Made by a program: the position numbers
Assembly: GCA_039630545.1 (NCBI GenBank)
Contig: JBCNUU010000004.1
Coordinates: forward strand, 77,207-141,206
Direction of reading: 5' to 3'
DNA: 64,000 nucleotides
Source: Endomicrobiia bacterium
Lineage (GTDB): Bacteria > Elusimicrobiota > Endomicrobiia > DTEH01
In this document: one piece after another, positions 1 through 64,000 of the stretch
Layout: each line of letters opens with the position of its first letter
How positions within the stretch are numbered: the first letter of the stretch is position 1

Positions 1-3000
1 AAAATTAGTTTTAACAGGGGAAATTTTTTATAATCTATATTGTAAAATTTTATTTTATTTAAGTCTTTAGTTGAAAGATTTTTAAAAGACCCATTAATTC
101 TTTTCCCTATACACATACCTAAAGCATAAGAAATTGGAATTCTCATGTCAGGATAAAAAAGCACAGCCTTGATATTTCCATCTATAAATTCTACCATTGA
201 ATGAATTAAAGATTGAGGATGAATCACTATATCTATATTTTGATAGGGCACATCAAACAAAAAATGTGCTTCTATGTATTCAAAACCTTTATTAACTAAG
301 GTAGCTGAATCTACAGAAATTTTTTTACCCATCTTCCAGACAGGATGAGTTATAATTTTTTCTGGTGTTTTATTTTTAATTTTTTTTCTAAATAGAGGTC
401 CTCCTGAAGCAGTTAAAATTATCTTTTTTATACTTTCTTTTTTTTCATTGTTTAAACATTGCAAGATTGCAACATGTTCACTATCTACAGGCACAAGGAA
501 TATATTGTTTTTTCTCACTTCTCTCATTAAAATATCACCAGCTACTACTAAAGTTTCTTTATTCGCTAAAGCTATATTTTTTATTTTCTTTCTAATAGCA
601 AAAAAAGTAGGCTTAAGTCCACCTATTCCAACTATAGCATTCACTAATATATCAGGATTTGTCTTATCTATTAACTCTAAAAGTCCTTCTTCTCCCCAAA
701 AAATTTTTTTTCCAAAAAATTTTTTTCTACTTTTATCTACTATGCAAACATATGGAACTTTGAACTCTTTTGCTTGTAGCTGTAATAACTCTACATTACT
801 TTTTGAAGCTAACCCTACTACCTCAAATTGATCTCTATTTGCCGAAATTACATCTAATACACTTCTACCAATCGAACCAGAAGAACCTAAAATTAAAACT
901 TTCATTTTTATTTTAAAAAAAACAGAATTAAGTAATAAAAAATTGGCCCTGTAAACAGAAAACTATCAAATCTATCCATCATACCACCATGTCCAAATAA
1001 TAAATTATCTGAATCTTTAAACCCACAATCTCTTTTTATAAGAGATTCAGTAAGATCAGACAAAGTGGCAAGGGGTGTAATTATTAAACTTAAAATTATT
1101 AAATCTCTAAATTTAATAGTTGTATCTATTTGAAAAATTCTGCTAAAAAATAAAAAAGCTAATATCCCAGAAATAATACTACTTGTAAATCCAACAACAG
1201 TTTTTTTAGGACTTATTATTGAAGCTAACTTTCTTCTACCAAATAATGAACCAAAAAAATAAGCTGAGTTATCTGCTATCCATATAGTGAAAAATAAAAT
1301 ATATGTTAATTTCATACCATAATTTTTAATATCCCTTATAAGATAAAGATGGGCTAAACTCCAGGCAAACAAAAATGGAAACAAAAACCCAACACTTATC
1401 CTTCCAACAGCTCCTAGAGGTTTTTGTTTTAAAATTTCTAAAAAACATATCAAAATTAATATCAAAGTAATATTTGCTGAGGTGAAATATAAAGAAAACT
1501 TAGTAAAAACAATAGGTTCAAATATTATAGACAAAAATATAATTATGCCTACAAAAAATATAACAATCTTTGAAACTTGGTAACCTACTTTATTTACCAT
1601 ATAAGTAAATTCTTTCAAGATGTAAAATAAAATAACTAATAATAAAAATAAAAATAAAAAATTTCCATAATAAATACTAATAACTACTATTGGAATTCCA
1701 AAAATTCCGGTTAATATTCTGGGTAATAACATATTTATTTAATTATGTAATCACTTAAGAACTTGTTATTTTACCAAATCTTCTTTCTCTACTTTGAAAT
1801 TCTTTTATTGCTAAAACAAATTCTTTAGGTGTAAAATCAGGCCAAAGTGTTTCTGTGAAATAAAGCTCAGTATATGCTATCTGCCATAACATAAAATTTG
1901 AAATTCTTAACTCTCCTGAAGTGCGAATTAAAAAATCAAGTGGCGGCAAATCTTTGGTATATAAAAATTTCTCAAATTTCTCTTCATCAATTTTTGTCAT
2001 ACCAGACTTTAAAATTTTATTCACAGCACGAATAATTTCTGAACGTCCACTGTAATTGATACATAAATTAAGTATCAAACCCGTATTATTTTTAAGCTGA
2101 TTTACCAAAGTTTCTAACATTTTTTTTGTTTTATCTTCAAGCTGAGAAATATCTCCACTGACTACTAACTTTATATTATTTTTGATTAAGTTTTTTTTTT
2201 CTCTTATTATATAATATTTCAATAAATTAAATAAACCTTCAACTTCCTGCTTTGGCCGCTGCCAATTTTCTGTGGAAAAAGCAAAAAGTGATAAACATTT
2301 TATCCCTAACTTCGCTGAGGTTTCAATTATTGATTTTACTACTTTTGCACCAGCTTTGTGCCCAAAAATCCTAGGTAATCCTCTTTTTTGAGCCCATCGT
2401 CCATTTCCATCCATTATGATACCTACATGTTTAGGAATCTTTTTTTCGTCTAGTTCTATATTCAAAAATTTCATTACAGTTAATTCTCCAGAATCTCTTT
2501 TGTTTTTTGCTTTAATAATTCATCTATCTTGCTTATATATGCCTCTGTAATTTTTTGGATTTGTTGTTCTGCTTGTCTTTCTTCATCTTCGGAAATTTTC
2601 TTATCTTTTTTTAGTTGACGAAGAGATTCTATGGCTGTTCTTCTTTCATTTCTTATTGCAACTCGAAAGTCCTCAGCCAACTTATTTACCTGTCGGATTA
2701 ATTCCTGGCGCCTTTCATCGGTAAGAGCAGGAACCGTAATCTTTATGGCTTTTCCATCATTAATAGGAGTAAGTCCTAGTGGCGAATTTAAAATAGCCTT
2801 TTCTATACTTACTAAATTTTTATTGTCCCACGGTCTTATTTCTATAATTTTTCCGTCTATTACATTAATATTACCAATTTGATTTAATTTCATCTTAGTA
2901 CCATAACATTCTACTTCTATGTTCTCCACCAAACTTATAGATGCTCTACCTGTCCTTATACTTAAAAATTCACTTTTGCATTTTTCTACTGTTTTTTTCA

Positions 3001-63000: not shown

Positions 63001-64000
63001 CGTCAGCTGTGAGTTTCCATCCAGTAGTTGTTGCAGTAATTAATTTTGGATGTTCTGGTAAAGTAGCATCTGTATTGTTTGTTGGAATTGTACAATCAAT
63101 ATATTCACCATATGTATAACTATCATATGGATCTTCTGTTGTTAGCCTTACGGTAATATCCTGTGGTGCAGCTGTAGGATTAAAGTAATCATCCACTAAC
63201 TGGATTTTTGGTTGAAAAGCATAACCAGCTTCTTGCCATGAGGATGTTCCATACTTGCCAGTTGAAGAACCAGGTTCCTCTGTTTCACCTGGTAGTATAA
63301 CAAATATTTTTGAAGGAACATTAGCGTTAACATTAAACACTTCGCCTAACTGGTCTAACAAACCTAACTCACCATCAGTTACTTTTATCCTTCGTGGTTT
63401 AGCTGTCTTTACTGTTACAGAAAATGTAGCTGTGTTGACTAAATAGGCATAAGTTGGAATAACTACAGCATATGGATCAACCTCAGTGGCTGATTTCATT
63501 ACATACACCCAAATAGTTGTCCCTGTTGTTGTTATATTCCAGTAAGTATCACATGCATTAACTGTTACAGTAAACGCAACACCTGCAGTTTGAGTTTGTG
63601 TAACAGCAGTATTTTTCCCATAAGGTGGTTGAGCATTAGGTGAACCGACCCAGTTACCTGCAACATTTTGTTGGTTAGGGACCAAAACTTGAAGTTGTGA
63701 TGCAAACCTTGGTGATACATAGAAACTCTTTGATGTCGTAGAGATATACAGTGGCGGTATACCGTCAATATCTTCAACAATAATCGTATGTGTTCCCGCA
63801 CGAACTATGTTAAGCATGTTTGTAAACACATACTGTCCTGCAACAAGTGATACAGTTGTTGGTTCAACATCGTAAGGATCGTTAGGTGTGTGAAGCTTAA
63901 CTATGGGTTCATCCAATGCAACCCTGTTCCACCAGTTGTCAGTAAGATTAACCGTTACCGTGAAAGGTGTCCCTGCAGTAAGAGGTGAAATACTTCCAGT

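Follow-up and report, generated by a model that had tools for sequence, protein, structure and literature searches.

Strong gene-strand bias without PolC in an Endomicrobiia bacterium, and a suggested split between gene convergence at dif and the replication signature

The window, the whole 64,000-nucleotide stretch of DNA analysed here, is C34:77,207-141,206 of an Endomicrobiia bacterium (G000; 1.60 Mb in 82 contigs, 95.5% complete, 29% GC; C-numbers are its contig labels). Open reading frames (ORFs) of at least 80 aa were called mechanically, with overlaps resolved and no annotation behind them. All 52 non-overlapping ORFs of the window lie on the minus strand, and its replication index of +0.75 (giant ORF excluded) corresponds to a leading-strand codon signature. 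Seven plus-strand ORFs of at least 100 aa vanish once overlaps with longer minus-strand ORFs are resolved. The window contains the following features.

1..64000, strand -: uninterrupted co-oriented gene run, part of C34 (52/52 ORFs, leading codon signature)
1..43720, strand -: dense housekeeping run (rnfC, porA, aroC, radA, lepA, ptsI, xseA, mtaB-like, dnaJ), GC skew -0.17 to -0.29
43844..64000, strand -: giant co-oriented ORF, 6,690 aa from the first start codon, its frame open to the contig end

Because the giant ORF has a GC content of 36-40%, the total GC skew is flattened over 43844..64000. The chromosomal landmarks (candidate oriC, parS, dif, the C45 block, dnaE, dnaA and dnaN) are all situated outside the window, on other contigs.

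Over the whole of C34, 127 of 129 ORFs are on the minus strand, the same count as in the first-pass annotation, here obtained with our own ORF caller. For C1 that annotation gave 217 of 231; the strong bias is confirmed, at 213 of 228 ORFs on one strand with our caller. It had further placed about 87-88% of all genes on the leading strand. As a count of direction this is reproduced: with contigs oriented as in that annotation, 1,186 of 1,340 ORFs (88.5%) on the 18 gene-bearing contigs above 5 kb point along the axis from origin to dif. The 58 ORFs on small contigs were left out of this count; many of them are chance frames in CRISPR arrays.

We compared the count with a null model in which operon-like units are randomly oriented at p=0.58, the average for species without PolC, and the majority strand is taken per contig. 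With three gap cut-offs and 2,000 runs for each, the mean majority share was 0.63-0.66 and the maximum 0.754, against the observed 88.5%. Per operon-like unit, 74-80% are co-oriented (68-74% with C45 taken as head-on), indicating that long operons amplify the bias seen at the level of genes. Although rearrangements are frequent, 255 of 259 orthologues and 40 of 43 synteny blocks retain their polarity. As to the low inverted-repeat density that goes with high-bias chromosomes, the 17 large contigs show only six repeat pairs (at least 60 bp at 90% identity or more), a number that may be too low, since short-read assemblies collapse repeats. End overlaps join only C1-CRISPR-C56 and C9-CRISPR-C67, and synteny joins C2-C45 and C4-C2; the contigs of G000 are thus not orderable, and arm lengths are known only from relatives.

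A single PF07733 match was found in G000, and the genome hence has one gene for a Pol III alpha subunit.

C56:93,743-97,198, strand not stated: dnaE (PF07733, PRK05673)

The product, a DnaE of 1,151 aa, scores 1,280 bits against PRK05673 (cut-off 1,002). PolC models reach 170-188 bits in G000, far under their cut-offs of 1,043 and 873, and the best piece for TIGR01405 (135.6 bits) falls within the sole DEDDh exonuclease domain of the genome, an insertion in RecJ; a hidden or split PolC was rejected on this ground. Across 301 genomes of the phylum, 234 of them of high quality, TIGR01405 at E<=1e-80 detected no PolC, with 3 of 14 controls positive. The earlier statement that DnaE is the only replicative polymerase is borne out by these searches: with no PolC over cut-off and one Pol III alpha, G000 falls outside the two-polymerase, PolC-type replisomes. 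Nine residues of the PHP domain serve as metal ligands, and in the G000 enzyme all nine (H8, H10, D17, H49, E74, H91, C142, D211 and H213) are identical to the aligned T. aquaticus residues. Their role as ligands is also supported by passages of PMC3919608. Judged from its sequence, this is a DnaE-only replisome with intact PHP metal residues, for which proofreading activity is predicted. The enzyme is a putative DnaE1.

Gene direction diverges at an AT-rich gap on C23, a candidate DnaA-dependent oriC that appears unlinked from dnaA.

C23:44,329-44,901, strand not stated: candidate oriC, AT-rich gap of 21% GC at which gene direction diverges
C23:43,857, strand not stated: parS, the only one in G000, adjoining the candidate oriC
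C82:28,310-29,674, strand not stated: dnaA, within a co-oriented run
C67:5,115-6,236, strand not stated: dnaN, on a contig other than that of dnaA

Four DnaA boxes cluster within 200 bp in this gap and nowhere else in the genome, a number reached in none of 20,000 shuffles, and five of the six family relatives examined have one or two DnaA boxes at the same gene end together with a parS within 10 kb. An origin at dnaA was rejected for G000: the gene lies within a run of uniform direction and has two boxes upstream, dnaN is on a different contig, and the signature does not switch there. A second DnaA-like gene was likewise rejected as an origin marker, since it too lies mid-run and its match to the 437-position DnaA model ends at 363.

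The other end of the axis is marked by a site on C45.

C45:64-91, strand not stated: dif, 28 bp, conserved pattern across the class

The derived pattern is matched without mismatch in four of six same-genus relatives and with one mismatch in a fifth. In the four relatives in which both sides are assembled, dif is bordered by orthologues of C45 and C2, and we therefore conclude that C45 and C2 meet at dif with their genes converging. The conserved site is accompanied by two full-length tyrosine recombinases and FtsK, as in XerCD/dif systems, and in addition by SMC and ParAB-like genes; the XerC and XerD arm names used below are our assignment. Neither Tus nor RTP was found in any of 70 genomes of the class, while the E. 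coli and B. subtilis controls, respectively, were positive. We saw no clear KOPS-like motif; the skewed octamers mirror coding bias.

In order to read replication direction independently of gene direction, we used a replication signature, the third-position (synonymous) G+T excess per 100 codons, with C45 excluded from training. On six clear contigs, majority genes score +1.8 to +2.5 and minority genes -3.5 to -11. C45 (135 kb) is reversed: its 124 majority genes, which point toward dif, score -4.64 (z -20.7), a lagging signature, and its nine minority genes score +2.82, a leading one. The lagging signature is uniform across all seven 20-kb bins of C45, whereas the C2 side keeps its full leading signature right up to dif. 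The effect is thus one-sided and reversed, and a mere weakening of skew at the terminus is ruled out. Intergenic DNA agrees, with a sense GC skew of +0.006 on C45 versus +0.159 in leading gaps (Fisher p=3e-4) and no difference from 13 lagging gaps. Judging by N-terminal sequence, the C45 genes are presumably core (mutS, mutL, dnaK, alaS, cysS, lysS, lpx, bamA, rplS, rpsP; names by our recognition of the sequences). Sense skew at codon position 1 is +0.33 to +0.42 in every gene class; total GC skew therefore follows gene direction and hides the C45 reversal.

What is not confirmed of the earlier 87-88% is thus the leading status of every gene counted. With C45 counted as head-on, the leading share falls to 1,071 of 1,340 (79.9%); if the intermediate C82 and C12:1-95 kb are flipped as well, it is 981 of 1,340 (73.2%), and a hidden Markov model estimates 73-75%. 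Signatures that are intermediate and cannot be placed occur on C12:1-95 kb, C82, C6 and C56:1-16 kb. Genes running with the fork therefore probably amount to about 80% (73-80%), and those running toward dif to 88%. Both the 73-80% by signature and the 88.5% along the origin-to-dif axis, each for an inferred leading strand, exceed the 70% that passages of PMC11040001 take as the threshold for high gene-strand bias.

The comparison also covered relatives, which are not independent of one another; the closed ones may coincide with published genomes cited below, and so are not independent of these either. The signature goes with the position of a gene and not with its identity. In G069 a score of +2.9 is seen for C45 orthologues situated on the opposite side (n=2), and one of +0.3 for orthologues of leading genes that lie on the C45 side (n=7); genes of the latter kind score +0.1 in G057 (n=11) and +0.4 in G067 (n=14), versus +2.0 to +3.1 in G000. 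In nine draft relatives from five families, 471 of 537 genes near dif point at it. In eight of the nine, the dif-facing genes of one side differ in signature from those of the other (p<0.05; G067, p=0.07). On the side with the lagging signature, hereafter the overrun side, 213 of 256 genes (83%) face dif, versus 258 of 281 (92%) on the other side (p=0.004); in G028 the overrun side has 19 of 36. This side is constant within families (the XerC-arm side in f1, f3, f5 and f6, the XerD-arm side in five f2 genomes), and the state therefore looks old. In an E. coli control, dif-facing genes outscore the others on both sides, with n=3 on one of them.

The two switches can be located, from 20-kb samples, on three chromosomes that are closed or nearly so. 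Their presumed origins were placed by parS or by the signature itself, which shifts the antipodes (the points opposite oriC) by up to about 15 kb. In G043 the signature flips at 1,298 kb (bootstrap 1,294-1,313), near the antipode at about 1,286 kb, and orientation flips at 1,477.9 kb, next to dif at 1,479.6 kb. The corresponding positions in G031 are 556 kb (511-618) and 553 kb for signature and antipode, and 625.6 and 626.3 kb for orientation and dif. The G031 signal is weak, and the upper end of its interval, 618 kb, is close to dif. In G022 the signature flips at 524-560 kb, with the antipode at 527-557 kb and dif at about 631.5 kb. Gene direction thus flips at dif in all three, and the signature 70-180 kb earlier, near the antipode. 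Between antipode and dif, 83 of 117 sampled genes in G043 and 46 of 48 in G031 still face dif. The origin-to-dif arms are unequal, with 55-61% of the circle on one side.

The strength of the bias varies. Along the origin-to-dif axis, 265 of 305 sampled ORFs of the closed G031 are co-oriented (87%), and 251 of 305 by signature (82%); G043 has 241 and 238 of 350 (68-69%), and G022 229 and 203 of 306 (66-75%). In G066, from the sister class (75 kb sampled), 35 of 61 ORFs are leading by the index. The class is uneven (66-82% by signature), and only some of its members are at Firmicute level, with G043 and G022 below it.

We consider it probable that the arms are unequal, that a fork trap is lacking and that one fork overruns dif, leaving a block of core genes copied head-on; the fork positions in this account are inferred. 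As the arms are unequal and there is no Tus or RTP trap, forks of equal speed would meet near the point opposite oriC. The short-arm fork would then pass dif and copy the end of the long arm head-on, in G000 at least C45 (135 kb, 124 genes), and it would have done so long enough for synonymous sites to switch. PolC would not be required for the bias itself, which may persist because head-on transcription of long operons is selected against in a compact genome. By analogy with the dif zone of E. coli, inversions next to dif would disturb the polarity that guides FtsK, and a late-replicated block would cost little, so that it might not be re-inverted. The erosion of the overrun side would fit a slow correction toward the fork. 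Forks ending opposite oriC instead of at dif have a precedent in the passages available from PMC6199493. The data themselves show the bias, the lack of PolC, genes converging on a conserved dif, polarity kept through rearrangements, a compositional switch displaced from dif and no known trap. The explanation as a whole, which we hold with moderate confidence, takes the orientation bias to be genuine, inherited and chromosome-wide in a DnaE-only host, and organised on the oriC-to-dif axis.

Alternatively, orientation could be selected mainly for a machine that travels to dif (FtsK, or SMC loaded at parS) and not for the replisome, the overrun zone then being a natural experiment that dif wins. 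In G031 and G043 gene direction switches no more than 2 kb from dif; this, the 213 of 256 overrun-side genes still facing dif, the constancy of that side within families and the presence of FtsK, two Xer recombinases, SMC and ParAB-like genes all speak for it, as does the report, in the text available from PMC5583512, that head-on transcription impedes SMC in Caulobacter. We nevertheless think it unlikely. The overrun side is eroded (83% versus 92%; 19 of 36 in G028), which a role of the fork would predict. Near the origin, gene direction switches together with the signature and not at parS (G043, 360-367 kb versus 394-397 kb; in G022 parS lies about 100 kb away), and this speaks against SMC. 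SMC is present in 149 of 151 phylum genomes, lower-bias families included, there is no clear KOPS-like motif for FtsK, and inertia would give the same pattern. A related, more specific proposal, that orientation is held to an FtsK-directed origin-dif segregation axis and not to the fork, so that 70-180 kb of core genes would have been head-on class-wide over long evolutionary time, we find doubtful; if it is true, extreme strand bias can do without PolC and, close to the terminus, also without genes running with the fork.

It is also conceivable that dif is where forks end. The 87-88% of genes would then all be leading, and the signature of C45 would reflect either a past inversion or some effect of the terminus. 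The C45 genes face dif, total GC skew and gene direction both flip at dif in G031, and total skew flips there in most bacteria (PMC6199493, in part). However, the signature is one-sided, with leading strength intact up to dif on the C2 side, it is reversed on minority genes, it is tied to position across genera of differing gene content, and its switch lies close to the antipode in G043, G031 and G022; codon position 1 accounts for total skew tracking gene direction. We judge this reading quite improbable. A draft-genome artefact (from taking the majority on each contig, from long operons, or from a PolC missing in the assembly), which 82 contigs, 95.5% completeness and the lower unit-level bias (74-80%; 68-74% with C45 head-on) might suggest, is very improbable given the null maximum of 0.754, closed G031 at 82-87% and PolC in none of 301 genomes, 234 of high quality.

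No replisome or conflict-resolution factor was found that separates the class from its lower-bias sister class, and any cause proposed for the high bias is therefore tentative. SMC is too widespread in the phylum to discriminate. Loss of canonical RNase HI (PF00075) was rejected as a cause: the family has no match in G000, but its matches are scarce in both classes (3 of 30 in sister-class family f20), and an RVT_3-type RNase H is present in the orthologue of a close relative. Missing conflict factors were rejected as well, Mfd and a UvrD/PcrA helicase being present in G000. The genome has only one GyrA/ParC gene.

The first-pass annotation presented the bias as a counter-example to a PolC rule. 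High bias without PolC holds, also in closed G031; the rule is weaker than was stated. Passages of PMC11040001 give a mean bias of 78% with PolC and 58% without, with PolC phyla up to about 90%, and list Synergistia above 70%; one of its supplements contains no mention of Elusimicrob or Endomicrob. PolC is confined to four phyla, with Elusimicrobia and Synergistetes outside these (PMC3919608, in part). Yet sections of PMC4070872 describe PolC as neither necessary nor sufficient, and PMC11237797, in the portion available, calls the dependency 'proposed (and rejected)'. PMC4613354, in its available parts, gives a mean of 0.727 for Elusimicrobia, and its Table S2 (2015) lists 0.792 for Rs-D17 (Endomicrobium) and 0.744 and 0.756 for two Synergistetes. 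With E. minutum (0.65 in PMC4070872; 0.65-0.66 across both sources) and two Clostridia with no detectable PolC, these tabled cases belong to the same phylum or are the same kind of exception. G000 is higher (88% along the origin-to-dif axis; closed G031, 87%), and in the text seen of these sources the rows are not discussed as a lineage trait.

G000 resembles the PolC phyla (Bacillota) in its chromosome-wide, long co-oriented runs, in the magnitude of the bias and in SMC/ParAB-parS, and its dif resembles the S. aureus dif printed in a passage of PMC11040001. Unlike Bacillota, it has no PolC, a single DnaE with intact PHP metal residues and no RTP, and its leading genes show T>A, not A>T, at fourfold sites. 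The Gemmatimonadota region with bias but no PolC (PMC11237797, as excerpted) shares a sharp switch of gene direction near the terminus, not always mid-chromosome; it spans only 600 kb, versus a whole chromosome in Endomicrobiia, and that paper concludes that replication ends at the gene switch, whereas our data suggest otherwise for Endomicrobiia. P. aeruginosa PAO1-UW has unequal arms and a dif away from the point opposite oriC, where its forks end (PMC6199493, same passages). There GC skew flips at dif, whereas in Endomicrobiia the synonymous-site composition has already flipped at the antipode, class-wide. The same source found, for 113 asymmetric chromosomes, that even there the flip in total GC skew sits at dif, which counts against the overrun reading; on the available text of PMC3317982, a dif-stop model alone fails to explain skew, and PMC2099444, likewise in part, already models mutation apart from gene direction. 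Portions of PMC2684129 and PMC3814617 give further background. We found no literature description of the dif/antipode split, none of strand bias or termination in Endomicrobiia and no paper joining 'Endomicrobium' and 'leading strand'; subscription genome papers and supplements (the per-species tables of PMC11040001, SkewDB) may list values.

The bias is real. It is a stronger case of the exceptions already known to the PolC correlation, and its leading share is to be put at about 80% in place of 88%. Newer is the class-wide split that our data suggest, with genes converging at dif and the signature flipping at the antipode. These genomes add to the comparative test of the cause of strand bias a class that reaches up to Firmicute level with no PolC. 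Two questions become testable in them: whether forks that lack a trap end at dif or at the antipode, and which of the two, fork or dif, sets the direction of genes. They also carry a warning. Where strand bias is strong, codon position 1 governs the total GC skew, which can then show the point of gene convergence and not that at which forks meet. Leading-strand shares in the literature would be too high as a result, and the apparent flip of skew at dif in asymmetric chromosomes could be accounted for in the same way.

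In the assembly studied here (G000), dnaA, dnaN and the candidate origin lie on three separate contigs:

C82:28,310–34,516, dnaA region
C67:5,115, dnaN
C23:44,329–44,901, candidate oriC

On C82, dnaA is preceded by the co-oriented genes rnpA, yidC, jag, mnmE and rsmA, and two DnaA boxes are found immediately upstream of it. Linkage of dnaA to dnaN is kept in DNA pieces L015 and L016 and is broken in L012–L014. The sole parS of G000 falls within the start of a called ORF (C23:43,172–43,879); the usual state in the class is a pair of parS sites separated by 0.1–1.5 kb. On contig C1 of G022, a closed or near-closed relative sampled as pieces L212–L231, parS is located ∼100 kb away from the composition-inferred origin, and no dnaA match was found at E ≤ 1e-100.

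Further genes of G000 were located as follows:

C1:167,339–169,135 (L010:1174–2970), second DnaA-like ATPase, 598 aa
C56:78,706–80,934 (L002:862–3090), RecJ carrying a DEDDh exonuclease insert
C23:65,783–68,248 and C23:222,660–225,092, gyrA and a gyrB-like gene

The second DnaA-like ATPase, which adjoins a pilT-like gene, is common across the class. The exonuclease within RecJ is the single epsilon-type domain of the G000 genome, in which no stand-alone dnaQ was found. gyrA and the gyrB-like gene are separated by 155 kb, and since the assembly contains only one GyrA/ParC-family gene, topoisomerase IV is absent from it.

The window ends in a giant ORF whose frame runs open to the contig end:

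Window 43844–64000 (C34:121,050–141,206), minus strand, giant ORF

It encodes at least 6,690 aa at a GC content of 36–40%, and its only Pfam match, a weak one, is to GEVED. The C-terminal 150 aa are similar to C12:176,142.

G000 holds two CRISPR arrays (C9–C67 and C56–C1 junctions, many small contigs). The larger comprises ∼600 repeat copies scattered across ∼30 small contigs. The smaller has cas-like genes on either side, those of C56 and those of C1. At two assembly branches, a contig start matches another contig's interior:

C8:1–77, matching C23:17,631–17,707
C4:1–77, matching C82:39,547–39,623

C8 carries restriction-modification-like genes and may represent a strain-variable island.

Four regions combine co-oriented genes with an intermediate strand signature (third-position G+T excess):

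C12:1–95,000
C82
C6
C56:1–16,400

Large membrane or secreted proteins are abundant in the left part of C12. The intermediate signature of these regions may reflect foreign origin, a recent inversion or a zone in which replication forks meet.
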